Shown one piece after another: positions 2,586 to 21,986 of a stretch of DNA of 22,290 bases. Position 1 is the stretch's first letter, and each line of letters starts with the position of its first letter. Where the stretch lies: IMG/VR virus record IMGVR_UViG_2563366854_000001, positions 1 to 22,290 of that record. The stretch is one strand, 5' to 3'. Under the pieces are notes generated by a model. That model saw nothing but the letters and a program-made list of their open reading frames with translations, had not been told where the DNA came from and made no database searches. Source of the DNA: a virus (Duplodnaviria > Heunggongvirae > Uroviricota > Caudoviricetes). Both the position numbers and the translations under genes were made by a program.

Positions 2586-2679
2586 TTTGTTCTCCACGTA
2601 TATGCACTGCACCGCGCTGAATTCTGGTAAAAGGAAGCCCTCACCATCCGGTGATTATTGAGTTAATTACGTTTCCATA

Positions 2680-2701
2680 AATGCCCCCGCAGGGGCATTT
2701 G
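2680..2701. terminator. Perfect 9-bp-stem hairpin between the YfdQ-like and HD-domain genes (possible intra-operon attenuator or bidirectional terminator)
   Basis: AAATGCCCC-CGCA-GGGGCATTT; A/T tracts are part of the stem; no separate U-tract. Confidence 0.3.
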
Positions 2702-2712
2702 CAGTAATGAAA

Positions 2713-3537: not shown

Positions 3538-3602
3538 AATAAGTCCTCACTATATAAAGATATTCAGTGATGAGATAAATAATCAGTTTATTACGAACGA
3601 TA

Positions 3603-4426: not shown

Positions 4427-4930
4427 ATGGACAAATTTGATAGAAGTGCACAAAGGCAGTTGTTACAAATACTGTATGATGCTCATCCTTATGAAATTTC
4501 TGATGATGCGTTGCAGTCTGTTCGTGACGCATTTGGAGATGATAATGTCCTAATTTCGAACTTAATTTATCTCGAAGAACATGGCTTGATTAAGAATGCT
4601 CTTGATTATTACTTGGATGGCATAAATATAAATATTCCTGAATTAAGAATTACTAAAGATGGAATTGATTTCATTCGTGATGATGGAGGTCTTAAAGCTA
4701 TTCTTGGGATTATGACAATAAGATTGCATGATGAGACTCTCTGTGAACTTGAACGTATCATCAATAGTTCTACTTCTGCCACGACTGAAGATAAGAAGAA
4801 ATTACTCTCTCAGCTTCGAACGCTTCCTGCCGACGCCATAAAACAGCTGACGATTCGATTACTTGGTCAGGGGCTTGACCATCTGCCGGACGTATTTCAC
4901 GTAATTCAAAAAGCCCTCCATTCTCTGTAA
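4427..4930 (+). CDS. Hypothetical protein, putative N-terminal winged-helix domain (AT-rich accessory gene)
   Basis: 167-aa ORF starting at ATG 4427; AT-rich codon usage unlike flanking genes; motifs LIYLEEHGLIKN and ITKDGIDFI resemble wHTH recognition helix and wing. Confidence 0.6.
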   Translation: MDKFDRSAQRQLLQILYDAHPYEISDDALQSVRDAFGDDNVLISNLIYLEEHGLIKNALDYYLDGININIPELRITKDGIDFIRDDGGLKAILGIMTIRLHDETLCELERIINSSTSATTEDKKKLLSQLRTLPADAIKQLTIRLLGQGLDHLPDVFHVIQKALHSL

Positions 4931-5108
4931 ATTCTGATTCTGGTCGGATTAGACAGAATCGTCCCCATCCGACCTGCTTACTAAGTAGAATCCAGAATTC
5001 GTCTTGTTGGTTGGTGCTGATAAAAAATCCATTAGGATGAACGTAAGCACAGAATATGACCATAGAACCCTCTTTTGTTACGGGGATACTAAGATTGTTA
5101 AAGAGCTA

Positions 5109-5131
5109 AGCGTCCTGTAGGGCGCTTTTTT
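5109..5131 (+). terminator. Rho-independent terminator-like hairpin
   Basis: AGCGTCC-TGTA-GGGCGCT (7-bp stem with one G-U pair) followed by TTTTTT; about 180 nt downstream of the 4427..4930 stop. Confidence 0.5.
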
Positions 5132-5216
5132 GTTGCTAACGAATCATCCGGTCATTCATACGCCACCGGCGGCTACTTCGTGGGCGTCCTGCCTGTCCGT
5201 GATAGCTTACATTATG

Positions 5217-5288
5217 TTGCTACTTAAAGTAGCAAAAATCAACAACAAAAAGTAGATATTTGTTGTTGTCTATGATTTTTCTATAATT
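5217..5288. promoter_or_regulatory. Operator-like palindromes plus a sigma70-like plus-strand promoter
   Basis: Near-perfect palindrome TTGCTACTT-A-AAGTAGCAA (5217-5235), related to the 13-bp motif repeated next to cI/cro; second inverted repeat AACAACAAA-N9-TTTGTTGTT (5241-5267); TTGTTG (5260-5265), 16-nt spacer, TATAAT (5282-5287). Confidence 0.4.
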
Positions 5289-5426
5289 AATTGAAAGTTA
5301 AATGTTTTTGCTGATTTACTATGCTGTAAACTGAAAATATCGCACGAAGTTGGAGTAGGTATTGAGCATAGTGAATTATGAGGAGGGAGTTTTTTATGAG
5401 ATTAATCAGGGAGAAAGAAGAGTAAA

Positions 5427-5446
5427 GCCCGGTTATGCGGCCGGGC
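5427..5446 (-). terminator. Hairpin immediately downstream of the ParA-like gene (candidate terminator)
   Basis: GCCCGG-N8-CCGGGC; on the minus-strand RNA it is followed by UUUACUCUUCUUUCU; begins 8 nt after the ParA-like stop. Confidence 0.4.
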
Positions 5447-5453
5447 ACATGCA

Positions 5454-6530
5454 TTACTTTGTAAGTTCTAGAACTCGTTGAGCCAGCCCTTTAAATTGTT
5501 CGTTAAAGGCGTCTCTGCTTGATTTCATTGTATTTAAGGCATGCCCAAATTGCCCTGAATCGCGAATTTGCTGATCACTGATGGAGAAAACAGGTGTCGC
5601 TAGTTGTTGGCTTATTGCGATTAATGAGTTGAAATCGGAAATATGCGCAAGATCATAGGCTGATAAATCTCCACTGACTGTTGTTTTGTTAATTGCATGT
5701 TGCACTTTATCTCGTGGAATTATGCAGGTAATTTTTTCTAGATTTGGCACTAAGATCGAATCAACAGCATCACGGATAGCTGCCATCCATTTTTCGAAAG
5801 ATTTTACAGGTGCTCCTTTACGCGGCCTGTATCTCTGCTGAATCATACCTAGAAACTGCGGTGCATTTTTAATTGATTGTGAAGAGTTACCATCATTATT
5901 TTCTTTAAATAATGCTAATTCTTTGTGCCAGCGAGGTATATTTTTTGAGAGAGAGCGAATTGCTTGCCAGCAAAAAAAGTCTGGAGCTACAGGTACGATA
6001 AAATAGTCACTTGACATGAGAACTACTTCATTTAAACCTCCAACATTAGGGCTGAGATCATAAAGAATGTAATCAATATTATTCTTCATGGCGATTAGCT
6101 GTAATATTTTTGGCAGGTTCCCTGGTATATTTCTTGTAGCAGGAATACCAGCAGCAATTTTTAGAGAAACACTTATCTGTGAATCTAAGTCCGAAACATC
6201 TAAATGTCCGGGAAGAAGCAGAAGGTTTTCATGCAGTGTAGGGTGTAATTTTCCCGTTTCTTTTTCAAGGTATGCTTCAGGTTGTCCGCCATTAATCAAA
6301 TATTCTACAATAGGTCCAAGAGTTAAGTTATCTCTGCTAGAATAAAAAGAATCTAAACCCTCATCAATCTTTTCATAGCCAAGAACCATTCCTGTTAGAT
6401 TACATTGCGAATCAAGGTCAACCATCAATACTTTCTTGCCTTCATCCGCAAGTGCCCATCCAAGATTGAAGGTTGTTGTGGTTTTACTTACCCCACCTTT
6501 ATGATTAAAAAAACAAATTGATTTTGTCAT
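5454..6530 (-). CDS. ParA/MinD-family P-loop ATPase with long C-terminal extension (orphan; no ParB partner seen)
   Basis: 358-aa ORF; deviant Walker A NHKGGVSKTTT near the N-terminus, VLMVDLDSQCNLT motif, Walker-B-like ILYDLSPNVGG; AGGA upstream of the ATG; AT-rich; same strand as and directly downstream of the cI-like repressor. Confidence 0.8.
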   Translation of the reverse strand: MTKSICFFNHKGGVSKTTTTFNLGWALADEGKKVLMVDLDSQCNLTGMVLGYEKIDEGLDSFYSSRDNLTLGPIVEYLINGGQPEAYLEKETGKLHPTLHENLLLLPGHLDVSDLDSQISVSLKIAAGIPATRNIPGNLPKILQLIAMKNNIDYILYDLSPNVGGLNEVVLMSSDYFIVPVAPDFFCWQAIRSLSKNIPRWHKELALFKENNDGNSSQSIKNAPQFLGMIQQRYRPRKGAPVKSFEKWMAAIRDAVDSILVPNLEKITCIIPRDKVQHAINKTTVSGDLSAYDLAHISDFNSLIAISQQLATPVFSISDQQIRDSGQFGHALNTMKSSRDAFNEQFKGLAQRVLELTK

Positions 6531-6700
6531 ATTTCTCTATCCTTTCGACCCCCAGCATATTGTAATTTACGCTGGGTGATTATTTTATATTGTTAATGAT
6601 AATGTTTAATAAAAATAAGAGAGTAAAACAACTATTAGTAATAGCACTTGCTTGATAAATATTATTTTTTCACCTTTAGTTCTATAGTCTAAACGAAGAA

Positions 6701-7462
6701 CTAAAGCCGGTTGTATTTAATTGATTCGTGTATCAATGCTTTGCCCATAACATAAAGTTGATCTTGGGACTTCTCATCAATGTACCATTTCTCATAGGCT
6801 GGATTATCCGAAAGAACGGCGAGTTTGTTGCCTTGCATTTGTAGACGTTTAACGTGGAACGTCTTACCATAAACGAAAGAGTAAACACCATCAGTTTGGA
6901 AGTTGCGAACAGAAATGTCGACAAACAGTCGATCTCCGGAAACTAGAGTAGGGGACATGCTGTCGCCATTTACAGTCATAACTTTAATATCATCTTGAGA
7001 ACGATTACCGAAAAGAGAACGGGCATGCTCTGTTGTGAACTCAATGGCGTAGAGCACATCAACATAGTCTGAAAGCATATAGGTTCCAGGTCCTGCGCTA
7101 ACGCTAAGATCCAAAACTTCTATCCTGTATACATCGGGTTTTGTTGGATTGGGGATGCTTGCCATTTCCTTACATCCTTCTCTCTCGCCAACACCATATT
7201 CTAAATATGAAGCTGATACCCCCAGAGCCAATGCAAGTTTATTCATGACAGAGGCACGAGGCTTCGCAGCGCCGATTGTGTATCGCCGCGCCATTTCATA
7301 TGTAACGCCCACAAGACTTTTGAGTTGGGTGACAGAAATTCCCTTGTTTGTCATTAGCTCGTTTAGTCTCTTGGCGAAATCTGGATACTTCTGTTCTTCT
7401 ACCATAGGTAGAAGGTTACTCGCATCACATACGCTAGTCATTTCTATTTTAAGTAGTTGCAT
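6701..7462 (-). CDS. cI-like prophage repressor (XRE-type HTH plus S24 LexA-like peptidase domain)
   Basis: HTH LMTNKGISVTQLKSLVGVTYEMARRY; Ala-Gly cleavage-site-like SAGPG; S24 motifs VNGDSMSPTL and KRL. Start is ambiguous (7462, 7441 or 7405) with no strong SD, so it may be leaderless. Confidence 0.85.
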   Translation of the reverse strand: MQLLKIEMTSVCDASNLLPMVEEQKYPDFAKRLNELMTNKGISVTQLKSLVGVTYEMARRYTIGAAKPRASVMNKLALALGVSASYLEYGVGEREGCKEMASIPNPTKPDVYRIEVLDLSVSAGPGTYMLSDYVDVLYAIEFTTEHARSLFGNRSQDDIKVMTVNGDSMSPTLVSGDRLFVDISVRNFQTDGVYSFVYGKTFHVKRLQMQGNKLAVLSDNPAYEKWYIDEKSQDQLYVMGKALIHESIKYNRL

Positions 7463-7503
7463 TCTGCTATTTTAAGTAGCATCATCCCTCTGAATTTCAG
7501 AGG
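7444..7503. promoter_or_regulatory. Immunity-region operators between cI and cro
   Basis: Two identical 13-bp copies CTATTTTAAGTAG (7444-7456 and 7467-7479, 23 bp centre to centre) plus palindrome CCTCTGAA-T-TTCAGAGG (7487-7503) overlapping the cro SD. Confidence 0.55.
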
Positions 7504-7511
7504 AGAAAGGT

Positions 7512-7775
7512 ATGTCATCTCAAAACTACACAGAGAAAGCAGTAAAAGCTGCGGGAAAATCTTTATCTGAAGTAGCCCGTCACTTTGGTTTTAAGTCCAC
7601 TCAATCCGTCGCTAATTGGGTAATTAACAATCAAGTCCCGTCAGAACGGGTTTTACAACTTTGTGAGTTGGGAAACTGGTCCGTGACCCCTCATGAACTG
7701 CGTCCTGATATTTACCCCAATCCAAATGATGGATTACCTGAGTGCTATTCAAAAGTTAGCGGTTCAGCTGCGTAA
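7512..7775 (+). CDS. Cro/YdaS-like HTH regulator
   Basis: 87-aa ORF with GGAGAAAGG upstream; divergent from cI across the operators; C-terminal ELRPDIY resembles the YdaS family (memory-based). Confidence 0.7.
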   Translation: MSSQNYTEKAVKAAGKSLSEVARHFGFKSTQSVANWVINNQVPSERVLQLCELGNWSVTPHELRPDIYPNPNDGLPECYSKVSGSAA

Positions 7776-7803
7776 ACGTAACCACAGAAACGAGGAGTTA
7801 ACC

Positions 7804-8355
7804 GTGGGTAAGCATCACTGGAAAATAGAAAAACAGCCTGAGTGGTACGTGAAAGCTGTCAGAAAAACTATCGCAGCGTTGCCGGGGGGTTACGCTGAAG
7901 CTGCTGACTGGCTGGACGTAACAGAGAACGCATTATTTAACCGCCTTCGTGCCGATGGCGATCAGATTTTCCCGCTGGGATGGGCAATGGTTTTACAGCG
8001 TGCTGGTGGCACTCACTTCATTGCTGATGCTGTGGCGCAGTCTGCAAATGGCGTATTTGTGTCTCTTCCTGACGTCGAGGATGTGGACAACGCCGATATT
8101 AACCAGCGTCTGCTGGAAGTCATTGAACAGATCGGCAGTTATTCAAAACAGATTCGTTCAGCAATCGAAGACGGTGTAGTGGAACCGCATGAGAAGACAG
8201 CAATTAACGACGAGCTGTATCTCTCAATTTCGAAGCTGCAGGAGCATGCAGCACTGGTCTACAAAATCTTTTGCATTTCAGAAAGTAATGACGCCCGCGA
8301 GTGTGCAGCTCCGGGCGCCGTGGCGTGTCGTGACTGTGGAGAAACTAACGCATGA
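7804..8355 (+). CDS. YdaT-like protein (putative CII-type regulator)
   Basis: Start placed at GTG 7804-7806, 7 nt after GAGGAG and just after the cro stop; the ATG-initiated 7693 ORF would overlap cro by 80 nt. Assignment is by position and size. Confidence 0.5.
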
Positions 8356-8707
8356 ACAGTTTAACAACACACTACCGTCGCTCGCAACTGATTGCGCTTC
8401 CTGTACCGGGTGGAAAAGCGAAGGTGGAATATTGCTATGCAGTGAATGTACCAGGTGACAGGGAAATTGTAACCCACAGCTTTGCTGAGTGGGCTGTGGG
8501 TGATTTCAACCGGCAGAAGGAGACAGTCCTTTGCGACAAGTTAACCGCTGGTTCAAAGATCACTACGGAGTGCCCGTCAGAGTCATTCGTTGGGAACCGG
8601 AAACACAACGTGTTATCTACCTCCGCGAAGGCTATGAGCATGAGTGCTTCAGCCCGCTCGAACAGTTTCGTCGTAAATTCAGGGAAATAGAGGTCGGTCA
8701 TGAGCAC
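8352..8707 (+). pseudogene. Small gene with apparent frame discontinuity (frameshifted or mis-sequenced)
   Basis: N-terminal part is in the frame starting at ATG 8352 (ATGA-coupled to the upstream stop); the protein-like C-terminal part ([49 protein letters not shown]) is in another frame from about 8504 and ends at 8707, overlapping the O-like start. The frame-0 tail after about 8530 is Ser-rich junk. Confidence 0.45.
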
Positions 8708-9641
8708 TAAATTAACCGGCTATGTATGGGATGGTTGCGCTGCATCAGGCATGAAATTATCCAGCGTGGCAATTATGGCCCGCCTGGCTGATTTCAGTAA
8801 TGACGAAGGTGTGTGCTGGCCATCAATTGAAACCATTGCCCGCCAGATTGGCGCGGGGATGAGTACCGTCAGAACGGCTATCGCACGGCTGGAAGCAGAA
8901 GGCTGGTTAACGCGTAGGGCGCGTCGCCAGGGTAACCGCAATGCGTCGAATGTTTATCAGCTTAACGTTGCGAAGCTTCAGGCAGCGGCATTTTCTCAAC
9001 TGTCAGATTCTGACCCGTCAAAATCTGACGCATCAAAATCTGACCCGTCAAAATTTGATGCGTCGAAATCTGGCAAAAAAGCGGGTTTTCACCCGTCAGA
9101 ATCTGGTGGGGATCCGTCAGTAAAATCAAAACATGATCCGTCAGATAAAAAAACTTCTCGTCCGGACGCTTCGCAACCGGACACGCAGACGGCTGAACAG
9201 GATTTTTTAACTCGCCATCCTGATGCGGTTGTATTCAGCCCTAAAAAGCGCCAGTGGGGGACGCAGGATGATTTGACCTGCGCACAGTGGCTCTGGAAAA
9301 AAATCATCGCCCTGTACGAGCATGCCGCCGAATGTGACGGCGAGGTGGTTCGTCCCAAAGAACCGAACTGGATAGCCTGGGCAAACGAAATTCGCCTGAT
9401 GTGTGTGCAGGATGGTCGTACTCATAAACAAATCTGCGAGATGTACAGCCGCGTCAGTCGCGATCCGTTCTGGTGCCGTAACGTGCTCAGCCCGTCGAAG
9501 CTGCGGGAAAAATGGGATGAGCTTTCCCTGCGCTTATCGCCGTCCGTCAGCACGTACACCGAAAAACGCGAAGACCCGTACTTCAAAGCCAGTTACGACA
9601 ACGTGGACTACAGCCAGATCCCGGCAGGATTCAGGGGGTGA
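8700..9641 (+). CDS. Replication initiator, lambda O-like
   Basis: 313 aa; N-terminal HTH-like region; internal low-complexity linker encoded by tandem DNA repeats (iterons), as in lambda O; GAGG 6 nt upstream of ATG. Confidence 0.75.
   Translation: MSTKLTGYVWDGCAASGMKLSSVAIMARLADFSNDEGVCWPSIETIARQIGAGMSTVRTAIARLEAEGWLTRRARRQGNRNASNVYQLNVAKLQAAAFSQLSDSDPSKSDASKSDPSKFDASKSGKKAGFHPSESGGDPSVKSKHDPSDKKTSRPDASQPDTQTAEQDFLTRHPDAVVFSPKKRQWGTQDDLTCAQWLWKKIIALYEHAAECDGEVVRPKEPNWIAWANEIRLMCVQDGRTHKQICEMYSRVSRDPFWCRNVLSPSKLREKWDELSLRLSPSVSTYTEKREDPYFKASYDNVDYSQIPAGFRG
9000..9150. repeat. Iteron array: candidate phage origin of replication inside the O-like gene
   Basis: At least five tandem units of about 15 bp (consensus near CCGTCAAAATCTGAC) at 9001-9074, further degenerate copies to about 9145, followed by an A-rich tract (GATAAAAAAA). 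Confidence 0.6.
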
Positions 9642-9643
9642 TC

Positions 9644-10132
9644 ATGAGTCTTTTGAATGACGTTCAGAAATTCATTGAAGCCCATCCGGGGTGTACTTCC
9701 GGAGACATTGCGGATGCTTTTGCAGGTTACTCACGACAGCGCGTTCTGCAGTCAGCAAGCAAGTTACGTCAGAGTGGGCGTGTGGCTCACCGTTGTGAAG
9801 GGGATACACGCAGACATTTCCCGCGGCTGACTGAGATACCGCAGGAGCCGGAACCGCAACCAGTTCGTGAATCCAGACCTGTGCGCAATTTCTATGTCGG
9901 CACTAACGATCCCCGGGTGATTTTGTGCCTGACCCGCCAGGCGGAAGAACTGGAGTCCAGGGGCTTATACCGTCGTGCTGCAACGGTGTGGATGGCGGCA
10001 TTCCGTGAAAGCCACTCCCAGCAAGAGCGAAACAATTTTCTTGCGCGTCGTGAGCGGTGTTTACGGAAAAGCAGCAAGCGCGCTGTATCGGGTGAAGAGT
10101 GGTATCTGTCAGGGAATTACGTGGGGGCTTAA
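9644..10132 (+). CDS. Hypothetical protein, possible PerC-like regulator
   Basis: ATG 9644 overlaps the O-like stop (TGATCATGA); segment ESRGLYRRAATVWMAAF resembles the PerC-family motif (from memory, low certainty). Confidence 0.45.
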   Translation: MSLLNDVQKFIEAHPGCTSGDIADAFAGYSRQRVLQSASKLRQSGRVAHRCEGDTRRHFPRLTEIPQEPEPQPVRESRPVRNFYVGTNDPRVILCLTRQAEELESRGLYRRAATVWMAAFRESHSQQERNNFLARRERCLRKSSKRAVSGEEWYLSGNYVGA

Positions 10133-10458
10133 TGACGACGTTAACTCAATGCCAGCAGCAGGTGCTGGATATGCTGATTTCTTACCAGAAAGAACGTGGC
10201 TTCCCGCCAACCAATCAGGAGGTGGCTACCATGCTGGGATACCGTTCAGTGAATGCAGCGGTGGAGCATCTTCGCGCACTGGAGAAAAAAGGCGTCATCA
10301 CGATAAAGCGTGGCGTGGCCCGGGGCATCACGCTTCATACCGCGGTGAAGGACGACGACAGCGAGGTGGCCGGGATTATCCGCGCACTGCTTGCTGGTGA
10401 GGAAAACGCCAGGCTGCGTGCAGCCCACTGGTTACATGAGAGGGGGCTGAAAGTATGA
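10132..10458 (+). CDS. LexA DNA-binding-domain-like protein lacking the S24 peptidase domain
   Basis: MTTLTQCQQQVLDML...GFPPTNQEVATMLGYRSVNAAVEHLRALEKKGVI...RGI aligns by eye with the LexA N-terminal winged HTH (LTARQQEVFDLI...[36 protein letters not shown]); only 108 aa; TAATG coupling with the upstream gene. Confidence 0.75.
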   Translation: MTTLTQCQQQVLDMLISYQKERGFPPTNQEVATMLGYRSVNAAVEHLRALEKKGVITIKRGVARGITLHTAVKDDDSEVAGIIRALLAGEENARLRAAHWLHERGLKV

Positions 10459-10844
10459 AGCTGATTCTGCCTTTTCCACCCAGCGTGAACACCTACTGGC
10501 GACACCCCAACAAAGTGGCATTTGCTGGTAAGAGCCTGATAAGCGCGGCGGGGCGAAAATTCCAGAGTGCGGCGTGCACAGCAATAGTTGAGCAGTTACG
10601 TCGTCTGCCGAAACCAACGTCGGCACCTGCTTCAGTGGAGATCGTGTTGTTTCCTCCGGATAACCGGATCCGCGATCTGGACAACTATAACAAGGCGCTG
10701 TTTGACGCCCTGACCCACGCGGGTGTGTGGGAAGACGACAGCCAGGTGAAAAGAATGCTGGTGGAGTGGGGACCGGTTATCCCGGAAGGGAAGGTCGAGA
10801 TCACTATCAGTAAGTACGAGAAAACGGCGGGTGCAGCCGCCTGA
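10455..10844 (+). CDS. rusA: RusA-family Holliday junction resolvase
   Basis: 129 aa; LPFPPSVNTYWRH and DLDNYNKALFDALT motifs characteristic of RusA; ATGA overlap with the upstream stop. Confidence 0.9.
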   Translation: MKLILPFPPSVNTYWRHPNKVAFAGKSLISAAGRKFQSAACTAIVEQLRRLPKPTSAPASVEIVLFPPDNRIRDLDNYNKALFDALTHAGVWEDDSQVKRMLVEWGPVIPEGKVEITISKYEKTAGAAA

Positions 10845-10863
10845 TCAAGAGGAGAAACGAAGT

Positions 10864-11661
10864 ATGAATAATCTGATGGTCATTGATGGTATTGAAGTTC
10901 GTCGTGATGCTTATGGGCGTTACAGCCTGAACGATCTGCACAGGGCTGCCGGTTCTCTGGATAAGCATAAGCCTGCATTCTGGCTCCGCAATGAGCAAAC
11001 TGAACGTTTAATAAGCGAGTTGCAGATTTGCAACTCGGTCAATATAGAGCCAGTTAACGTTATTCGTGGCGGAAATAACCAGGGGACGTATGTCTGCAAA
11101 GAACTGGTGTATGCCTATGCAATGTGGATCAGCCCGTCATTCCATCTGAAGGTGATCCGTACTTTCGATATGGTAACCAGCGCATCGGAAAAATTATCCG
11201 GGCAGGCTGCTGACAAGATGCAGGCTGGCGTGATTCTGCTGGACTTTATGCGCCGGGAGTTAAACCTGTCTAACTCTTCAGTGCTTGGTGCCTGTCAGAA
11301 ACTCCAGGAGGCTGTTGGCTTACCGAATCTGGCACCGCGCTATGCCATTGATGCTCCTGCTGACGCGCCTGATGGCTCAAGCCGTCCCACGCTGTCACTG
11401 AGTGCACTGCTGAAGCAGTATGGTATCCGCCTGACAGCTAATCAGGCATATCACCAGATGGTGAAGCTGGGGATCGTCGAGCAGCGCGAACGATACAGCC
11501 GTACCGCGATTAACAACATCAAAAAATTCTGGTCGCTGACAGCGAAAGGCTGCATGTTCGGCAAGAACATCACCAGTCCCGCAAATCCGCGCGAGACGCA
11601 GCCGCATTTCTTCGAATCCCGATTCCCTGAGCTGTTAAAGCTGCTCGATACCGTTCATTGA
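10864..11661 (+). CDS. KilA-N domain protein (Bro/antirepressor-like)
   Basis: Start at internal Met MNNLMVIDG (GAGGAGAAACGAAGT-ATG); N-terminal KilA-N-like pattern (YSLNDLHRAAG ... GTYVCKELVYAYAMWISPSFHLKVI). Confidence 0.75.
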   Translation: MNNLMVIDGIEVRRDAYGRYSLNDLHRAAGSLDKHKPAFWLRNEQTERLISELQICNSVNIEPVNVIRGGNNQGTYVCKELVYAYAMWISPSFHLKVIRTFDMVTSASEKLSGQAADKMQAGVILLDFMRRELNLSNSSVLGACQKLQEAVGLPNLAPRYAIDAPADAPDGSSRPTLSLSALLKQYGIRLTANQAYHQMVKLGIVEQRERYSRTAINNIKKFWSLTAKGCMFGKNITSPANPRETQPHFFESRFPELLKLLDTVH

Positions 11662-11662
11662 G

Positions 11663-12658
11663 GTGACCGTGAGAGCACTATTGACCCCTGAAATTGCCCC
11701 GCGTATGGGGATCGTATTGTTCAGGCCCGGTTCAGAGCTGATGCCCCTGTTTATGCAGGGGCGTGTACTGCTGGAGCCTGAGCCGGAGCATTATTCATCT
11801 TTCGCCAGTGGTGCCGTTCCCGCGGCATCACAACCGCTGGCGGATGATCCTGCCGTTCGGGCCGTGTTCCGTAATGAGGCAGTGATTCGTCGTGCTGGTG
11901 GGGTGGAATGTCTTGAAAGCTGGTTACTTCGTGAAAAAGGCTGCCAGTGGCCTCATTCCGACTGGCACAGCGAGAACATGACCACAATGCGACACGCGCC
12001 GGGCGCAATCCGTCTGTGCTGGCACTGCGATAATCAGTTACGTGATCAGTTCACGGAGCGGCTGGAATCAATGGCAACGGATAACTGTGCCCGTTGGGTG
12101 TTGTCTGTAGTCCGTCGGGATCTCGATTTTAATGATAACCATGCCGTGACAATGCCGGAACTGTGCTGGTGGCTGGTTCGTAATGACCTGGCGGATGCCT
12201 TACCGGAAAGCGCAGCCCGTAAGGCACTGAGATTACCGAAGTCTGTTTTGCCGTCTGTCACCCGGGAAAGTGACCTTGTGCCTTCGGTTCCTGCCACCAG
12301 CATTATCCAGGATAAAGCGAAAAAGGTGCTGGCGCTGAAAGTGGATCCGGAGTCGCCGGAGTCTTTTATGTTACGCCCCAAACGTCGTCGCTGGGTTAAT
12401 GAACAGTACACGCGCTGGGTTAAGACGCAGCCGTGTGCATGTTGTGGAAAGCCAGCTGATGATCCGCATCATCTGATAGGCCATGGTCAGGGTGGAATGG
12501 GTACAAAAGCGCATGACCTTTTTGTGCTGCCTTTGTGCAGAAAACACCACGACGAACTGCATGCGGATACCGTGGCATTTGAAGAGAAGTATGGCTCCCA
12601 GCTGGAGCTGATATTTCGTTTTATCGATCGCGCACTGGCGATTGGTGTGCTGGCCTGA
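11663..12658 (+). CDS. HNH-motif phage protein (DUF968-like)
   Basis: C-terminal [21 protein letters not shown]...[10 protein letters not shown] is Cys/His HNH-like; start uncertain (GTG 11663 or downstream ATG 11705). Confidence 0.65.
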
Positions 12659-12675
12659 TTTTGTGGAGAAAGTTA

Positions 12676-13059
12676 ATGCGTGATATTCAGATGGTTCTTG
12701 AACGTTGGGGAGCGTGGGCGGCTAATAATCATGAAGATGTGGCCTGGTCGTCCATTGCCGCCGGTTTTAAGGGATTAATTCCTTCAAAAGTAAAATCTCG
12801 CCCGCATTGTTGTGACGATGACGCGATGATCATTTGCGGGTGCATGGCCCGTCTGAAAAAGAACAACAGCGATTTACACGATTTATTAGTAGATTATTAT
12901 GTATGTGGTATGACATTCATGTCACTGGCAAGTAAGCATTGCTGCTCGGATGGTTATATCGGGAAAAGGTTACAGAAGGCTGAGGGCATAATTGAAGGGA
13001 TGTTAATGGCATTAGATATCCGGTTAGATATGGATATCGTTGCTAATAATTCTAATTGA
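12676..13059 (+). CDS. Q: Late-gene antiterminator Q
   Basis: Start at [22 protein letters not shown] (GGAGA-N7-ATG); Q-family-like sequence with Cys-rich zinc-binding region; sits upstream of a hairpin terminator and the lysis cassette. Confidence 0.8.
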
Positions 13060-13197
13060 TATGCAATTGTTTACTAAAAGTTATTAAAAATGGGGCGTGG
13101 AAACGCCCCCAAAATAAAGGGTAATATATAACAGAAGGTTTATATAGTAAGAAGCAAGGTAGTGCTTCTAAAGGAAGTGGCTTGAGGGCTCCACTTA

Positions 13198-13245
13198 TAT
13201 GTTGCGGAGGCAAAGCCTCCCGCAACATATCTTTTTCGTAAGTCA
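13198..13245 (+). terminator. Strong rho-independent terminator (tR'-like) downstream of Q
   Basis: ATATGTTGCGGAGGC-AAA-GCCTCCCGCAACATAT followed by CTTTTTCG. A second hairpin GGGGCGT-GGAA-ACGCCCC at 13092-13109 has a U-tract on the opposite strand and may terminate the porin transcript. Confidence 0.6.
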
Positions 13246-13247
13246 GA

Positions 13248-14330
13248 TTAGAACTGATAAACCAGACCTACAGCGACGATGTCGTCGGTATCAATACCAG
13301 CTGTTTTGGTAAACTTACTATCGTCAATTAAGTTGATTTTGTAATCAACAAAAGTAGACATGTTTTTATTAAAGTAGTAAGTAGCACCGACATCGACATA
13401 CTTGACTAAGTCTCGGTCACCATGAACACCAAGGTCTTTACCTTTTGACTGAAGGTAAGCAACAGATGGGCGCAGACCGAAGTCAAACTGATATTGTGCT
13501 ACTGCTTCAAAGTTTTGTGCTTTGTTTGCAATATGGTTATTACCAAAAACGGTCATATTCTGAGTTTCAGAATATGTGGTAGCCAGATAGATATTGTTCG
13601 CATCATATTTCAGGCCTGCAGCCCATACTTCCGCATTTTTGCCGGAGGCATTGAATTTGCTCTTACCATAGGCGACCTGACCGTCAGTGCGATCTGATTT
13701 AGCATAGGTTGCACCCACGCCGAATCCTTCATACTCATAAGTAGTGGAGAAACCGAAACCATCACCATTGGCTTCAGTTACGTCAGTGCGGTCATTTTTA
13801 CCCTGATACTGAGCAGCAAAGTTCAGGCCATCGACCAGACCAAAGAAGTCGTTGTTACGATAAGTTGCAACACCAGTAGTGCGACCAGTCATGAACACAT
13901 CTGTTTGGGTCCAGGTATCACCACCGAATTCTGGCAGAACGTCAGTCCACGCACCGATGTCGTATGCTACACCGTAGTTACGGCCGTAATCGATGGAGCC
14001 GTAATCACCAAATTTCAGGCCTGCAAATGCAAGACGGGTTTTGTCTTTGGAAGAACCTTGAGATTCAGCACGGTTGCCTTTGAATTCATATTCCCACTGA
14101 CCGAAACCAGTCAGTTGATCGTTGATTTGGGTTTCACCTTTGAAGCCAAGACGGGCATAAGTAGTATCACCATCATCTGCATCATTAGAGGAGAAGTAGT
14201 GCTTGGCATTAACTTTCCCGTATAGATCCAGCTTGTTACTGTCTTTATTATAAATTTCAGCTGCCTGAGCAGACATCGCCATCAGTACTGATGCAGCTAC
14301 AGCAGAAATTGCCACTGTTAATTTTTTCAT
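13248..14330 (-). CDS. nmpC: Outer-membrane general porin, OmpC/NmpC family (lysogenic-conversion moron)
   Basis: Start at internal Met [23 protein letters not shown] (signal peptide); porin hallmarks AEIYNKD...LDLYGKV and C-terminal GLVYQF; lies between Q and the holin, as nmpC does in DLP12-type prophages. Confidence 0.85.
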
Positions 14331-14756
14331 TGTACGCCCTTTTTTTGAACTATTATTAAAAAATGATGTCACTGCGCGATAAATATTCATCTAATCAATG
14401 TGATTATTTCAAGATGTAAGTTTTAGTTTCTCATTTAATTTGTGAAGTAGATCTCTATTTTTATCTGAACCTTTTCTATCTAATCCTATTCATGGCTCTT
14501 GTCTGAACAAAAATAAATCTATTAGCTAATTTATATTAATGGCACTTATTTATAAGTGCTCTATAATTCTTTAGCTTAATTTAAACAAACTAAAAATAAC
14601 ATCGGAAATTATTAACTGATTATTTGTTGAAGTTTTCTTATGTATTTGTGGTGGTGTTTTGAACACTCGGTGGCATTCTCACAAATATCATTTAGTAGTT
14701 TACGTACGTAAAAAATTGGTTATGCTGTTAAGAGTGGTTACTTCGTCACACAGCTT

Positions 14757-14790
14757 AAACCCGCCGTCGAGCGGGTTTTTCCATTTTTTG
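14757..14790 (+). terminator. Hairpin with U-tract upstream of the lysis cassette
   Basis: AAACCCGC-CGTCGA-GCGGGTTTTT followed by CCATTTTTT. Confidence 0.4.
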
Positions 14791-14918
14791 AGTCTCGATA
14801 TTAGCTGATAACCCAATACCTGAGTTATTCACTGACTCCGAATCTGTTACGTTTCTGCCTTTATTGCGATACGTAATATCCCCTTAATTTACACCCGCTT
14901 TGTCTGCGAGGTGGGGTT

Positions 14919-15134
14919 ATGAAATCCATGGATAAGTTAACAACGGGTGTCGCCTATGGCACCTCAGCAGGTAGTGCCGGTTACTGGTTTTTACAGCTGC
15001 TCGATAAAGTCACGCCCTCACAGTGGGCAGCAATAGGTGTGCTGGGTAGCCTGGTATTTGGCCTGCTGACGTACCTGACAAACCTTTATTTCAAGATTAA
15101 AGAAGATAAGCGCAAGGCTGCGAGAGGTGAATAA
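14919..15134 (+). CDS. Class II holin, phage-21 S-type pinholin with dual-start motif
   Basis: 71 aa, [29 protein letters not shown]...; Met1-Lys-Ser-Met4 dual start; two TM segments; charged C-terminus. Confidence 0.9.
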
Positions 15135-15631
15135 TGCCTCCATCATTACGAAAAGCCGTTGCTGCTGCTATTGGTGGCGGAGCAATTGCTATAGCATCAG
15201 TGTTAATCACTGGCCCAAGTGGTAACGATGGTCTGGAAGGTGTCAGCTACATACCATACAAAGATATTGTTGGTGTATGGACTGTATGTCACGGGCATAC
15301 AGGAAAAGACATCATGCTCGGTAAAACGTATACCAAAGCAGAATGCAAAGCCCTCCTGAATAAAGACCTTGCCACGGTCGCCAGACAAATTAACCCGTAC
15401 ATCAAAGTCGATATACCGGAAACAATGCGCGGCGCTCTTTACTCATTCGTTTACAACGTGGGTGCTGGCAATTTCAGAACATCGACGCTTCTTCGCAAAA
15501 TAAACCAGGGCGATATCAAAGGCGCATGTGATCAGCTACGTCGCTGGACATATGCTGGCGGTAAGCAATGGAAAGGTCTCATGACTCGTCGTGAGATTGA
15601 GCGTGAAATCTGTTTGTGGGGTCAGCAATGA
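15134..15631 (+). CDS. SAR endolysin (lysozyme with N-terminal signal-anchor-release domain)
   Basis: 165 aa; Gly/Ala-rich weakly hydrophobic N-terminus ([20 protein letters not shown]) followed by a lysozyme-like domain; TAATG coupling to the holin. Confidence 0.9.
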
Positions 15632-16089
15632 ACAGAGTAACCGCGATTATCTCCGCTCTGGTTATCTGCATCATCGTCTGCCTGTCATGGGCTGTTAATC
15701 ATTACCGTGATAACGCCATTACCTACAAAGCCCAGCGCGACAAAAATGCCAGAGAACTGAAGCTGGCGAACGCGGCAATTACTGACATGCAGATGCGTCA
15801 GCGTGATGTTGCTGCGCTCGATGCAAAATACACGAAGGAGTTAGCTGATGCGAAAGCTGAAAATGATGCTCTGCGTGATGATGTTGCCGCTGGTCGTCGT
15901 CGGTTGCACATCAAAGCAGTCTGTCAGTCAGTGCGTGAAGCCACCACCGCCTCCGGCGTGGATAATGCAGCCTCCCCCCGACTGGCAGACACCGCTGAAC
16001 GGGATTATTTCACCCTCAGAGAGAGGCTGATCACTATGCAAAAACAACTGGAAGGAACCCAGAAGTATATTAATGAGCAGTGCAGATAG
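15628..16089 (+). CDS. Rz-type i-spanin
   Basis: ATGA overlap with the endolysin stop; N-terminal TM helix followed by coiled-coil-like periplasmic domain. Confidence 0.8.
15848..16030 (+). CDS. Rz1-type o-spanin lipoprotein, embedded in Rz in the +1 frame
   Basis: 60-aa ORF wholly inside Rz; lipobox LVVVGC; proline-rich mature region ([15 protein letters not shown]). Confidence 0.75.
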
Positions 16090-16120
16090 AGCTGCCCATA
16101 TCGATGGGCAACTCATGCAA

Positions 16121-16414
16121 TTATTGTGAGCAATACACACGCGCTTCCAGCGGAGTATAAATGCCTAAAGTAATAAAACCGAGAAATCCATTTACGAATG
16201 TTTGCTGGGTTTCTGTTTTAACAACATTTTCTGCGCCGCCACAAATTTTGGCTGCATCAACAGTTTTCTCCTGTCCAATTCCCGAAACGAAGAAATGATG
16301 GGTGATGGTTTCCTTTGGTGTTACTGCTGTCGGTTTGTTTCCAACAGTAAACGTCTGTTGAGCACATCCTGTAATAAGCATTGCCAGAGCGGCAGAAAAC
16401 AACATTTTTTTCAT
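16121..16414 (-). CDS. bor: Bor-family outer-membrane lipoprotein (serum-resistance moron)
   Basis: Start at MKKMLFSAALAMLITGCAQQTF (lipobox); AGGA upstream; C-terminus ...GIYTPLEARVYCSQ matches lambda Bor closely. Confidence 0.9.
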   Translation of the reverse strand: MKKMLFSAALAMLITGCAQQTFTVGNKPTAVTPKETITHHFFVSGIGQEKTVDAAKICGGAENVVKTETQQTFVNGFLGFITLGIYTPLEARVYCSQ

Positions 16415-16775
16415 CTTATTATCCTGCATTGTTAAAAACGGCAGAATCCTATGTGACAACAATTAAACGATAGTTAAATGGATTGATGAAAATTAAAACT
16501 ATATAGGTGGATGCTCAGCCTATTGGAGGAGGGGGGGGCACTCAGAATCCTGTGGAATGAAATAAACCGCTCTATCTGTCCATTACCCTTTTAGCTGCGC
16601 TGTATCGTCGCCGTATTCCCGCATTAACCATGACCGTAGCCCGACGGGGAATTCCTTCTGCGTGAGTGTGCGGGAATAATCAAAAACGATGCACACCGGG
16701 TTTTACTGTGCTGACAGACGCAGGGTTACCCTCATAGTCGCTTTTCCGGTGCGATGGTGGAAGAAACCGGGATGT

Positions 16776-16970
16776 TCATCCATCATCACTTTGGATTGAT
16801 GTATATGCTCTCTTTTCTGACGTTAGTCTCCGACGGCAGGCTTCAATGACCCAGGCTGAGAAATTCCCAGACCCTTTTTGCTCAAGAGCGATGTTAATTT
16901 GTTCAATCATTTGGTTAGGAAAGCGGATGTTGCGGGTTGTTGTTCTGCGGGTTCTGTTCTTCGTTGACAT
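16776..16970 (-). CDS. Small YlcI-like protein
   Basis: 64-aa ORF MSTKNRTRRTTTRNIRFPNQMIEQINIALEQKGSGNFSAWVIEACRRRL; position after bor matches DLP12 ylcI (memory-based). Confidence 0.55.
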   Translation of the reverse strand: MSTKNRTRRTTTRNIRFPNQMIEQINIALEQKGSGNFSAWVIEACRRRLTSEKRAYTSIQSDDG

Positions 16971-17099
16971 GAGGTTGCCCCGTATTCAGTGTCGCTGATT
17001 TGTATTGTCTGAAGTTGTTTTTACGTTAAGTTGATGCAGATCAATTAATACGATACCTGCGTCATAATTGATTATTTGACGTGGTTTGATGGCGTAGAT

Positions 17100-17350
17100 G
17101 CACGTTGTGACATGTAGATGATAATTATTATCATTTTGCGGGTCCTTTCCGGCGATCCGACAGGTTACGGGGCGGCGACCTCGCGGGTTTTCGCTATTTA
17201 TGAAAAATTTCCGGTTTAAGGCGTATCCGTTCTTCTTCGTCATAACTTAATGTTTTTATTTAAAATACCCTCTGAAAAGAAAGGAAACGACAGGTGCTGA
17301 AAGCGAGCTTTTTGGCCTCTGTCGTTTCCTTTCTCTGTTTTTGTCCGTGG
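17100..17350. other. Lambda-type cos site (cosQ-cosN-cosB); cohesive-end sequence GGGCGGCGACCT at 17170-17181
   Basis: Sequence ...CGACAGGTTACG|GGGCGGCGACCTCGCGGGTTTTCGCTATTTATGAAAA... corresponds to the joined right and left ends of phage lambda, immediately upstream of Nu1. Confidence 0.85.
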
Positions 17351-17358
17351 AATGAACA

Positions 17359-17904
17359 ATGGAAGTCAACAAAAAGCAGCTGGCTGACATTTTCGGTGCG
17401 AGTATCCGTACCATTCAGAACTGGCAGGAACAGGGAATGCCCGTTCTGCGAGGCGGTGGCAAGGGTAATGAGGTGCTTTATGACTCTGCCGCCGTCATAA
17501 AATGGTATGCCGAAAGGGATGCTGAAATTGAGAACGAAAAGCTGCGCCGGGAGGTTGAAGAACTGCGGCAGGCCAGCGAGGCAGATCTCCAGCCAGGAAC
17601 TATTGAGTACGAACGCCATCGACTTACGCGTGCGCAGGCCGACGCACAGGAACTGAAGAATGCCAGAGACTCCGCTGAAGTGGTGGAAACCGCATTCTGT
17701 ACTTTCGTGCTGTCGCGGATCGCAGGTGAAATTGCCAGTATTCTCGACGGGATCCCCCTGTCGGTGCAGCGGCGTTTTCCGGAACTGGAAAACCGACATG
17801 TTGATTTCCTGAAACGGGATATCATCAAAGCCATGAACAAAGCAGCCGCGCTGGATGAACTGATACCGGGGTTGCTGAGTGAATATATCGAACAGTCAGG
17901 TTAA
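17359..17904 (+). CDS. nu1: Terminase small subunit Nu1
   Basis: 181 aa, MEVNKKQLADIFGASIRTIQNWQEQGMPV...; essentially lambda Nu1. Confidence 0.95.
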   Translation: MEVNKKQLADIFGASIRTIQNWQEQGMPVLRGGGKGNEVLYDSAAVIKWYAERDAEIENEKLRREVEELRQASEADLQPGTIEYERHRLTRAQADAQELKNARDSAEVVETAFCTFVLSRIAGEIASILDGIPLSVQRRFPELENRHVDFLKRDIIKAMNKAAALDELIPGLLSEYIEQSG

Positions 17905-19936
17905 CAGGCTGCGGCATTTTGTCCGCGCCGGGCTTCGCTCACTGTTCAGGCCGGAGCCACAGACCGCCGTTGAATGGGCGGATGCCAGTTACTATCTCCC
18001 GAAAGAATCCGCATACCAGGAAGGGCGCTGGGAAACACTGCCCTTTCAGCGGGCCATCATGAATGCGATGGGCAGTGACTACATCCGCGAGGTGAATGTG
18101 GTGAAGTCTGCCCGTGTTGGTTATTCCAAAATGCTGCTGGGTGTTTATGCCTACTTCATAGAGCATAAGCAGCGCAACACCCTTATCTGGTTGCCGACGG
18201 ATGGTGATGCCGAGAACTTTATGAAAACCCACGTTGAGCCGACTATTCGTGATATTCCGTCGCTGCTGGCGCTGGCCCCGTGGTATGGCAAAAAGCACCG
18301 GGATAACACGCTCACCATGAAGCGTTTCACCAATGGGCGTGGCTTCTGGTGCCTGGGCGGTAAAGCGGCAAAAAACTACCGTGAAAAGTCAGTGGATGTG
18401 GCGGGTTATGATGAACTTGCTGCCTTTGATGAGGATATTGAACAGGAAGGCTCTCCGACGTTCCTGGGCGATAAGCGTATTGAAGGCTCGGTCTGGCCAA
18501 AGTCCATCCGTGGCTCCACGCCCAAAGTGAGAGGCACCTGCCAGATTGAGCGTGCAGCCAGTGAATCCCCGCATTTTATGCGTTTTCATGTTGCCTGCCC
18601 GCACTGTGGGGAGGAGCAGTACCTTAAATTTGGCGATAAAGAGACGCCGTTTGGCCTCAAATGGACGCCGGATGATCCCTCCAGCGTGTTTTATCTCTGC
18701 GAGCATAATGCCTGCGTCATCCGTCAGCAGGAGCTGGACTTTACTGATGCCCGTTATATCTGCGAAAAGACCGGGATCTGGACCCGTGATGGCATTCTCT
18801 GGTTTTCGTCATCCGGTGAAGAGATTGAGCCACCGGACAGTGTGACCTTTCACATCTGGACGGCGTACAGCCCGTTCACCACCTGGGTGCAGATTGTCAA
18901 AGACTGGATGAAGACGAAAGGGGATACGGGAAAACGTAAAACTTTCGTAAACACCACGCTCGGTGAGACGTGGGAGGCGAAAATCGGCGAACGTCCGGAT
19001 GCTGAAGTGATGGCAGAGCGGAAAGAGCATTATTCAGCGCCCGTTCCTGACCGTGTGGCTTACCTGACCGCCGGTATCGACTCCCAGCTGGACCGCTACG
19101 AAATGCGAGTATGGGGATGGGGGCCGGGTGAGGAAAGCTGGCTGATTGACCGGCAGATTATTATGGGCCGCCACGATGATGAACAGACGCTGCTGCGTGT
19201 GGATGAGGCCATCAATAAAACCTATACCCGCCGGAATGGTGCAGAAATGTCGGTATCCCGTATCTGCTGGGATACTGGCGGGATTGACCCGACCATTGTG
19301 TATGAACGCTCGAAAAAGCATGGGCTGTTCCGGGTGATCCCCATTAAAGGGGCATCCGTTTACGGAAAGCCGGTGGCCAGCATGCCACGTAAGCGAAACA
19401 AAAACGGGGTTTACCTTACCGAAATCGGTACGGATACCGCGAAAGAGCAGATTTATAACCGCTTCACACTGACGCCGGAAGGGGATGAACCGCTTCCCGG
19501 TGCCGTTCACTTCCCGAATAACCCGGATATTTTTGATCTGACCGAAGCGCAGCAGCTGACTGCTGAAGAGCAGGTCGAAAAATGGGGGGATGGCAGGAAA
19601 AAAATACTGTGGGACAGCAAAAAGCGACGCAATGAGGCGCTCGACTGCTTCGTTTATGCGCTGGCGGCGCTGCGCATCAGTATTTCCCGCTGGCAGCCGT
19701 ACTGGATGCACTGGAGAAGCATGACACCGGGGCGACGTTTTTTGATGGTCGCCCCGCTGTTTTTGATGAGGCGGATTTTCCGGCAGTTGCCGTTTATCTC
19801 ACCGGCGCTGAATACACGGGCGAAGAGCTGGACAGCGATACCTGGCAGGCGGAGCTGCATATCGAAGTTTTCCTGCCTGCTCAGGTGCCGGATTCAGAGC
19901 TGGATGCGTGGATGGAGTCCCGGATTTATCCGGTGA
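17879..19936 (+). pseudogene. A: Terminase large subunit A, 3'-truncated and fused out of frame to U
   Basis: Lambda-A-like through ...ALAALRISISRWQ (to about 19696), then continues as junk in the wrong frame of U-derived DNA until a stop at 19936. Confidence 0.85.
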
Positions 19937-20067
19937 TGAGTGATATCCCGGCACTGTCAGATTTGATCACCAGTATGGTGGCCAGCGGCTATGACTACCG
20001 GCGCGACGATGATGCGGGCCTGTGGAGTTCAGCCGATCTGACTTATGTCATTACCTATGAAATGTGA
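19697..20067 (+). pseudogene. U: Tail terminator U, 5'-truncated remnant with no own start
   Basis: Frame-1 translation from 19696 reads AVLDALEKHDTGATFFDGRPAVFDEADFP...LTYVITYEM*, lambda U minus its first few codons. Confidence 0.8.
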
Positions 20068-20074
20068 GGACGCT

Positions 20075-20815
20075 ATGCCTGTACCAAATCCTGTAATGCC
20101 GGTGAAAGGTGCCGGGACCACCCTGTGGGTTTATAAGGGGAGCGGTGACCCTTATGCGAATCCGCTTTCAGACGTTGACTGGTCGCGTCTTGCAAAAGTT
20201 AAAGACCTGACGCCCGGCGAACTGACCGCTGAGTCCTATGACGACAGCTATCTCGATGATGAAGATGCAGACTGGACTGCGACCGGGCAGGGGCAGAAAT
20301 CTGCCGGAGATACCAGCTTCACGCTGGCGTGGATGCCCGGAGAGCAGGGGCAGCAGGCGCTGCTGGCGTGGTTTAATGAAGGTGATACCCGTGCCTATAA
20401 AATCCGCTTCCCGAACGGCACGGTCGATGTGTTCCGTGGCTGGGTCAGCAGTATCGGTAAGGCGGTGACGGCGAAGGAAGTGATTACCCGCACGGTGAAG
20501 ATCACCAATGTGGGACGTCCGTCGATGGCAGAAGATCGCAGCACGGTGACGGCGACAACCGGCATGACGGTGACACCCGCCAGTGCTTCCGTAGTGAAAG
20601 GGCAGAGCACCACGCTGACCGTGGCATTCCAGCCGGAGGGCGCAACCGACAAGAGCTTCCGTGCGGTGTCTGCGGATAAAACAAAAGCCACCGTGTCGGT
20701 CAGTGGTATGACCATCACCGTGAACGGCGTTGCTGCAGGCAAGGTCAACATTCCGGTTGTATCCGGTAATGGTGAGTTTGCTGCGGTTGCAGAAATCACC
20801 GTCACCGCCAGTTAA
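20075..20815 (+). CDS. V: Major tail protein V
   Basis: Start at [22 protein letters not shown] (GAGGA upstream); near-identical to lambda V, including the C-terminal Ig-like region. Confidence 0.9.
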
Positions 20816-20830
20816 TCCGGAGAGTCAGCG

Positions 20831-21253
20831 ATGTTCCTGAAAACAGAATCATTTGAACATAACGGCGTGACCGTCACGCTTTCTGAACTGTCAGCCCTGC
20901 AGCGTATTGAGCATCTTGCCTGGTTGAAAGAGCAGGAAAAAAAGGCTGAATCCAGCGGCAACCTGCAGGTGTCTGTAGAGGATCTTATCAGAGGCGGGGC
21001 GTTTCTGGTGGCGATGTCTCTGTGGCATAACCATCCGCAGAAGACAAAGCTGCCGTCCATGAATGAAGCCATTACGCAGATTGAGCAGGAAGTGCTTACC
21101 ACCTGGCCCACGGAGGCAATTGCTCAGGCTGAAAACGTGGTGTTACGTCTGTCCGGAATGTCTGAGTTTGTGGTGAATAATGCCCCTGAACAGGCAGATG
21201 ACGCCGGGCCTGCAGAGCCTGTTTCTGCGGGAAAGTGTTCGACGGTGAGCTGA
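20831..21253 (+). CDS. G: Tail assembly chaperone G
   Basis: 140 aa, MFLKTESFEHNGVTVTLSELSALQRIEHL...; ends shortly after the slippery site. Confidence 0.9.
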   Translation: MFLKTESFEHNGVTVTLSELSALQRIEHLAWLKEQEKKAESSGNLQVSVEDLIRGGAFLVAMSLWHNHPQKTKLPSMNEAITQIEQEVLTTWPTEAIAQAENVVLRLSGMSEFVVNNAPEQADDAGPAEPVSAGKCSTVS

Positions 21254-21654
21254 GTTTTGCCCTGAAACTGGCGCGTGAGATGGGGCGACCCGACTGGCGC
21301 GCCATGCTTGCCGGGATGTCATCCACGGAGTATGCCGACTGGCACCGCTTTTACAGTACCCATTATTTTCATGATGTTCTGCTGGATATGCACTTTTCCG
21401 GGCTGACGTACACCGTACTCAGCCTGTTTTTCAGCGATCCGGATATGCATCCGCTGGATTTCAGTCTGCTGAACCGGTGTGAGGCTGACGAAGAGCCTGA
21501 AGATGATGTGCTGATGCAGAAAGCGGCAGGGCTTGCCGGAGGCGTCCGCTTTGACCCGGACGGGAATGAAGTTATCCCCGCTTCCCCGGATGTGACGGGC
21601 ATGACGGAGGATGACGTAATGCTGATGACAGTATCCGCTATAAACATTCAGTAG
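20831..21654 (+). CDS. G-T tail assembly chaperone fusion made by programmed -1 frameshift; T part C-terminally altered
   Basis: Slippery heptamer GGGAAAG at 21229-21235; the -1 frame continues as VFDGELSFALKLAREMGRPDW... (T domain); the last residues (…TVSAINIQ*) differ from what I recall of lambda T. Confidence 0.7.
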
Positions 21655-21986
21655 AGACGATAGATTCAGAGCACGCCGATCTCATTTTCAGGATGCGCCC
21701 TGTGTGGTACAGGTCGCAATGCGAAAATGACAGGCGTGACTGGGGATTCTATGGATTGATTGCCGAGGAAGTAGGAGAAATTGCCCCTCAGTTTGTTCAC
21801 TGGCGACCAGCCAACGAAGATGATGCACCGGAAACCATTTCCAGCAATGGCCTTGTTGCCGAAGGTGTAATGTACGAACGTCTGGTTGTTCCACTGATTC
21901 ACCATATCCAGAAACTGACTGAAAGAGTTGATGAACTTGAGTCAGAATTGAAGTTGTTATCAACTTCCCAAAGCGATATCGGATAA
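21637..21986 (+). pseudogene. Tail-fibre C-terminal remnant (intramolecular-chaperone / S74-like domain)
   Basis: Open frame without a credible start; WGFYGLIAEEVGEIAPQFV...NGLVAEGVMYERLVVPLIHHIQKLTERVDELESEL resembles the C-terminal chaperone domain of tail fibres and tailspikes. Confidence 0.5.

Follow-up and report, generated by a model that had tools for sequence, protein, structure and literature searches.

The window analysed here, the whole stretch of 22,290 nucleotides, is 100% identical to scaffold KB732936.1 of GCA_000351985.1, a 2013 draft assembly of E. coli KTE161. By its sequence it belongs to a DLP12-family lambdoid prophage at argU, carried by KTE161 and close relatives. The window opens with the stop codon of intD; this integrase gene is 100% identical to intD of E. 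coli WP3-W18-ESBL-08, where it lies 15 bp from tRNA-Arg, and shows 99.3% DNA identity to K-12 intD over 1,259 bp. At the opposite end, the 47-bp argU repeat (attR) is found on the source scaffold at window-equivalent 26738-26784 (scaffold locus 15504-15550), between ompT and envY as in K-12, which makes the remnant ~26.8 kb long. Both traits of the DLP12 family are present: i) occupation of the argU 3' end with intD and the 47-bp attR; and ii) loss of virion genes, with A, U and T truncated.

An intact prophage with its head genes, in the same order and orientation, was found by a whole-window search in 157 of 5,426 complete E. coli genomes, the best relative being that of WP3-W18-ESBL-08. Window positions 1-19697 match its locus 9001-28698 with 99.87% identity, and positions 19693-21635 match its locus 34741-36683 with 98.3% identity. 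From int to Nu1, all 26 annotated genes are full length, and 25 of them are 100% protein-identical to the intact relative, Q having two substitutions. The gene order from int to Nu1-A and across U-V-G-T is the same in WP3-W18-ESBL-08, NCTC86 and PhiR49_1/PhiR29_1, and the intact argU prophages and PhiR49_1/PhiR29_1 carry the same cargo as the window element, namely an OmpC/OmpD-like porin, bor/iss, and ompT at the right end. They differ from it in keeping W-Z (6.05 kb), H-stf (12.2 kb), a full A (641 aa) and a full U (131 aa).

The intact OmpC/OmpD/NmpC-like porin gene (13251-14330, minus strand) lies between Q and the lysis cassette and has 100% protein identity to the intact relative; it is the uninterrupted counterpart of the IS5-disrupted nmpC of K-12. 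The element has also kept a homologue of the Bor/Iss (increased serum survival) lipoprotein (16124-16414, minus strand), located downstream of the lysis genes. Where lambda has rexAB, immediately adjacent to the XRE/cI-like repressor, is a gene for a 358-aa ParA/MinD-type P-loop ATPase (5457-6530, minus strand), adjoined by a 167-aa ORF (4427-4927, plus strand) with no family match. PADLOC and Pfam searches of the ParA-like gene gave only a generic P-loop match, together with a short N-terminal PADLOC match to the candidate system PDC-M28B. PhiR49_1 carries different genes in this region, and the ParA-like gene and the 167-aa ORF may constitute a variable accessory or defence slot. To the right of the prophage, the nfrA gene of KTE161 (scaffold locus 17429-19053) is split by an IS3-family element, with rve and HTH_Tnp_1 ORFs between two NfrA fragments.

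The cos region (17107-17350, plus strand) is retained and near-identical to that of lambda. It consists of the cosQ side, cosN, with the 12-nt cohesive end GGGCGGCGACCT at 17170-17181, and cosB; alignment and BLAST against lambda 48440-48502 and 1-231 revealed few substitutions and one 1-nt indel. Next to it lies an intact Nu1 gene (17359-17904, plus strand) for the small terminase subunit, a 181-aa protein that matches the Pfam family Phage_Nu1 and has 100% amino acid identity to the WP3-W18-ESBL-08 homologue. The following ORF (17879-19936, plus strand), referred to here as A', begins with a GTG start codon, as in lambda, and encodes 685 aa, of which residues 1-606 are native large terminase and residues 607-685 are out-of-frame U. 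Both enzymatic regions are present with the same boundaries as in lambda gpA: the GpA_ATPase domain (PF05876, E = 1e-50) at residues 47-285 and the GpA_nuclease, or endonuclease, domain (PF20454, E = 4e-74) at residues 322-600. The C-terminal 35 residues of gpA (607-641), the prohead/portal-binding end, are gone and 79 out-of-frame residues stand in their place; comparison of the A' translation with lambda confirms that the prohead (portal) binding segment is absent. The product has been deposited as ELF26706.1, "large terminase [E. coli KTE161]". As deposited, the gene extends from the start of A to the stop of U (window 17879-20067, 2,189 nt) while the product is the 685-aa A', and neither the truncation nor the fusion is flagged.

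The joint between A and U was placed by BLAST of the window against lambda and by base-by-base comparison. Lambda 1-2529 corresponds to window 17170-19697 (98.6% identity) and lambda 8573-10515 to window 19693-21635 (95.7%), the second block being co-linear with the first. The A side matches up to 19697 and the U side from 19693, so that the two blocks overlap by the five bases GCAGC at 19693-19697 (deletion junction 1), a microhomology common to both parents, and there is no contiguous intact A. A preliminary description of this DNA had put the switch from A to U at 19690-19700 and had proposed that a lambda alignment would place the breakpoints; the joint does fall there. The same description had read the A translation as lambda-like up to ...ISISRWQ and as out-of-frame sequence thereafter to 19936, which agrees with the 606 of 641 native residues and 79 further codons found here.

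The interval missing at junction 1 corresponds to WP3-W18-ESBL-08 locus 28699-34745 and amounts to 6,047 bp relative to that prophage and 6,048 bp relative to lambda. According to the annotation of the intact relative, it contains the last 107 nt of A (35 codons), W, the portal gene B, the protease/scaffold genes C/Nu3, D, E, FI, FII, the tail gene Z and the first seven codons of U. The A-U fusion is a deletion scar, and the head block was lost via this 6-kb deletion. The claim that the whole head module is absent thus holds against intact relatives that carry the same prophage at the same site and have W, B, C/Nu3, D, E, FI, FII and Z. The list of missing genes given earlier (portal, protease/scaffold, decoration, capsid and head completion) was correct as far as it went, but left W, FI, FII and Z unnamed. 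The fusion to U in another frame was likewise recognized, but what remains is more than the "3' part of U", namely codons 8-131 of 131.

This U remnant, 'U (19693-20067, plus strand), of the tail terminator gene is in a frame different from that of A and covers positions 9-130 of the 130-position Pfam profile Phage_tail_U. It no longer has the U start codon, nor is it translationally coupled to Z. The U frame is open from 19636, and inspection of the ORF and its translation found no ATG, GTG or TTG start before 19885; by eye, no canonical slippery heptamer that would lead from the A' frame into the U frame was seen in the stretch from 19636 to the joint. As judged from the reading frame, 'U has no usable start codon. 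The annotation pipeline of GCA_012537815.1 calls a 140-aa "Phage_tail_U" ORF at 19645-20067, the first codon of which is CTG (19645) in the window, and a GAGG lies 6 nt upstream of this codon; the 140-aa product would carry a foreign 16-residue N-terminus on U. The CTG was considered as a start for 'U, and the coincidence of the pipeline call and the GAGG at this point was not regarded as evidence of expression. Downstream of 'U are two intact genes on the plus strand: V (20075-20815), for the 246-aa major tail tube protein, with 98% amino acid identity over the full length to V of WP3-W18-ESBL-08, and G (20831-21253), for the 140-aa tail assembly chaperone, with 100% identity to its G. V and G are intact, yet they would lack a tail tip or initiator complex on which to polymerise.

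A second deletion, absent from the preliminary description, lies 1.9 kb downstream of junction 1, and the 1.9-kb island between the two scars consists of 'U, V, G and T'. Within T, at 21635, the match to the intact prophage breaks off. The T' ORF (21235-21654, plus strand; Pfam Phage_tail_T) retains about 133-134 of the 144 native residues, followed by 5-6 foreign residues and a stop codon, the boundary being uncertain by one residue as the joint lies in shared bases. At deletion junction 2 (21632-21635), T is fused to a tail-fibre gene fragment through a 4-bp microhomology, TATC. From 21632 to the window end at 22290, the sequence agrees at 100% identity with a tail-fibre-domain gene of NCTC86 and with the ORF after it, which lie 12 kb further on in the same prophage. 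The fibre fragment (21636-21986, plus strand) is the 3' half of a gene for a "tail fiber domain-containing protein" (...SIRYKHSVETIDSEH...SDIG*), without a native start, and is 100% identical to NCTC86 locus 16005-16355; a Pfam search of this fragment gave no match. Relative to NCTC86, deletion 2 amounts to 12,175 bp. It takes the last part of T and the genes H, M, L, K, I, J, lom and stf, together with a small ORF and the 5' half of the tail-fibre-domain gene. Adding the two deletions (6.05 and 12.18 kb) to the ~26.8 kb remnant gives ~45.1 kb.

With the head module and Z removed by deletion 1 and H through stf removed by deletion 2, neither heads nor tails can be made by the prophage, as judged from the gene loss. 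The preliminary description had concluded from the missing head module that capsids cannot be made, which stands but is incomplete, given that the second deletion takes most of the tail genes as well. The remaining terminase would be affected too. In lambda, the portal is contacted by the gpA C-terminus (PMC2366019), and the Aam42 mutant, in which gpA lacks only its last five residues, shows no prohead binding while cos nicking and Complex I formation are kept (PMC4856287). A' resembles the Aam42-type lambda A amber mutants in that the C-terminal prohead-binding end is lost and the ATPase and nuclease regions are kept; it differs in the extent of the loss, 35 residues instead of five, and in the 79 unrelated residues added. 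Because the segment is lost where even removal of the last five residues abolishes prohead binding in lambda, A' would have to be classed as a truncated derivative and not as a functional member of the large terminase family. From the behaviour of Aam42 and the portal contact of the gpA C-terminus, A' could at most nick or cut cos. The protein may in addition be destabilised by its 79-residue junk tail. Clipping in A' may also extend to a putative leucine-zipper segment that gpA has near residues 580-615.

A short-read draft can produce a false A-U junction by collapse or by a chimeric join, and the origin of the window from a 2013 draft assembly invites this reading, as does the distribution of the junctions: neither was found in any of the 5,426 complete E. 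coli genomes, and junction 1 had no exact match in the one-genome-per-species GTDB contigs (species representatives). Against this, exact 71-mers across both joints are present in GCA_012537815.1, which is identical over 11 kb, in GCA_024427605.1, and in an independent Logan assembly of SRR640037, where the contig is reported in seven samples. GCA_024427605.1 represents different data, since it has 2 SNPs over 5 kb. Both joints are thus seen base for base in three separately deposited NCBI assemblies and a Logan assembly; moreover, a 5-bp overlap is far too short for k-mer collapse. Assembly collapse, which the preliminary description had named as a finding that would overturn its reading, has in this way been answered; judged from these sequences, misassembly is effectively refuted and retains hardly any probability. 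As neither junction is found in the 5,426 complete E. coli genomes, the deletions are rare and lineage-specific; their presence in several assemblies shows them to be inherited in more than one isolate.

Both joints have the appearance of short-homology events. For a null expectation, 200,000 random deletion joints were placed in the parent sequence; five or more shared bases, as at GCAGC, occurred with P = 0.006, and four or more, as at TATC, with P = 0.018. The microhomology that had been suspected at the first joint from a few bases shared by the two parents is thereby borne out. No inserted or filler bases, IS element or att site were present at either joint, the parent has no direct-repeat family with copies at both endpoints of deletion 1 and no long direct repeats, and in flank alignments the parental flanks are at chance-level identity outside the shared bases. 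Since the null probabilities are low and IS elements, att sites, filler bases and long repeats are lacking, short-homology illegitimate recombination likely explains both joints better than random joining. Microhomology-joined deletions of up to ~40 kb are known in E. coli (PMC4872102, citing Chayot et al. 2010). The ancestor, integrated at tRNA-Arg argU, would have been a phage of ~45 kb whose cos, Nu1, A, head and tail genes were of the lambda type. The isolated phage PhiR49_1 has this same layout and size (45,270 bp, with int, early genes, Q, porin, lysis, cos-Nu1-A, head, tail, fibres and ompT), from which the ancestor can be taken as a normal, viable lambdoid phage type. From this phage, deletion 1 (6,047 bp) would have removed the end of A through the start of U by illegitimate recombination at five shared bases, and deletion 2 (12,175 bp) the end of T and H through stf by illegitimate recombination at four. 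The route may have been replication slippage or microhomology end-joining after a break, which sequence alone cannot separate. For short-homology deletions in lacI, the study of Albertini et al. in 1982 is said to be the classical reference. A genome carrying one deletion without the other was not found, so that the order and independence of the two are inferred. The intactness of the other genes and the near-identity of cosN and cosB to lambda point to recent deletions, or else to few further changes after them.

The locus is thus very probably a deletion scar in a decaying DLP12-family prophage that has undergone two separate short-homology deletions. It could also be read as a joint between two lambdoid genomes, a resident argU prophage and a superinfecting or co-resident phage, instead of a deletion within a single prophage. 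Divergence from WP3-W18-ESBL-08 does jump exactly at joint 1: the ~2 kb leading up to it contain 0 mismatches and the first 980 bp to its right 33. Many other E. coli genomes, moreover, have alleles that match the U segment at 100% identity. But after these 980 bp there are again 0 mismatches up to 21635: all 33 lie within U and V (window 19738-20671) and 20672-21635 is identical, as expected of an ancestral mosaic U-V patch, the left edge of which is at the deleted interval or falls within it. In 157 genomes the same prophage has both flanks in this order and orientation. Recombination between two prophages on the chromosome would delete or invert the stretch of chromosome between them. A two-genome joint is also less parsimonious; we consider it improbable, and it would leave the outcome unchanged, a head-less defective prophage with a microhomology joint. 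Because identity jumps at the joint, the immediate parent of the deleted prophage is taken to have had a U-V allele different from that of any intact relative examined. A search for a closer intact parent of the U-T island gave 98.6% identity as the best among complete genomes and no exact intact parent. The difference in the U-V allele is ordinary lambdoid mosaicism.

Comparable losses are seen in other E. coli remnants. The cryptic prophage DLP12 of K-12 lies at the argU site with the intD integrase (PMC6379469). This prophage, with its nohD-aaaD-tfaD region, has in common with the window element the argU site, intD and the 47-bp attR, as well as homologous Q, porin, lysis cassette, bor, ylcI, cos and Nu1. 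It too has a truncated A (aaaD) fused by deletion, there to downstream tail-fibre sequences. K-12 aaaD ends at window-equivalent 18186, after ~103 codons, whereas A' keeps 606 codons; and DLP12 of K-12 is IS-ridden and far more eroded, whereas the window element has a complete early region, an uninterrupted porin gene and the 'U-V-G-T' island. The possibility that aaaD records the same event was rejected in view of its different breakpoint and the absence of both window junctions from K-12. As neither junction occurs in K-12, the two elements decayed independently. A composite match in E. coli Nissle 1917, with fragments of A, E and U, was also rejected as the same event, as it belongs to an older remnant at ssrA (locus 12001-12602). 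There, fragments of A, the major capsid gene E and U directly abut, which resembles the window junction; the differences are the other site, the other breakpoints and far greater erosion, with a few hundred bases left per gene. By sequence comparison, the Nissle 1917 remnant is an independent example of repeated deletion in the same head region.

Head genes can also be lost under selection, a domestication that would leave an F-type tailocin-like particle or a helper-dependent cos element. Co-option of tail genes does occur at times (PMC7744054), and in the present element cos, Nu1, int, the regulatory, replication and lysis genes, V and G are all intact. Yet no tail can form: the element has lost H, M, L, K, I, J and stf, and only truncated U and T are left. 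For stable packaging of lambda as a monomer, the lower limit is roughly 75-78% of lambda length; at ~26.8 kb the element has roughly 55% of that length and falls below this limit. Only a few near-identical isolates carry it, and there is no sign of long-term retention. Domestication can in consequence be given almost no credence. An F-type (lambda-like) tailocin in particular was rejected, the genes H, M, L, K, I, J and stf being absent besides the head genes, and U and T truncated. A cos-type phage satellite was rejected as well: such PICI-like elements are ~10-15 kb long and have their own primase/replication and helper-hijacking genes, whereas this element is ~26.8 kb long, is gene for gene a truncated phage, and has no satellite-specific genes. 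One might further imagine a role for the remnant, which has cos, Nu1, undamaged regulatory, Q and lysis genes, and an A' that is probably able to nick but unable to dock on proheads. Were a superinfecting lambdoid phage that shares its Q and cos specificity to trans-activate the late operon of the remnant, A' and Nu1 could occupy or cut the cos sites of the invader unproductively, a "poison terminase" type of interference. Alternatively, multimers of the element might be packaged by a helper phage via cos. Such a role seems very unlikely.

A literature search for KTE161 returned nothing, and no paper on this deletion was found. The element is a case of ordinary prophage decay, a new instance of the well-known loss of morphogenetic genes from lambdoid prophages. 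It has little significance beyond annotation, except as a dated-looking snapshot of two clean microhomology deletions in an otherwise undamaged 45-kb phage. The "large terminase" ELF26706.1 is a truncated fusion and is due a pseudogene flag, and the two junction sequences could serve as clonal markers of the KTE161 lineage.
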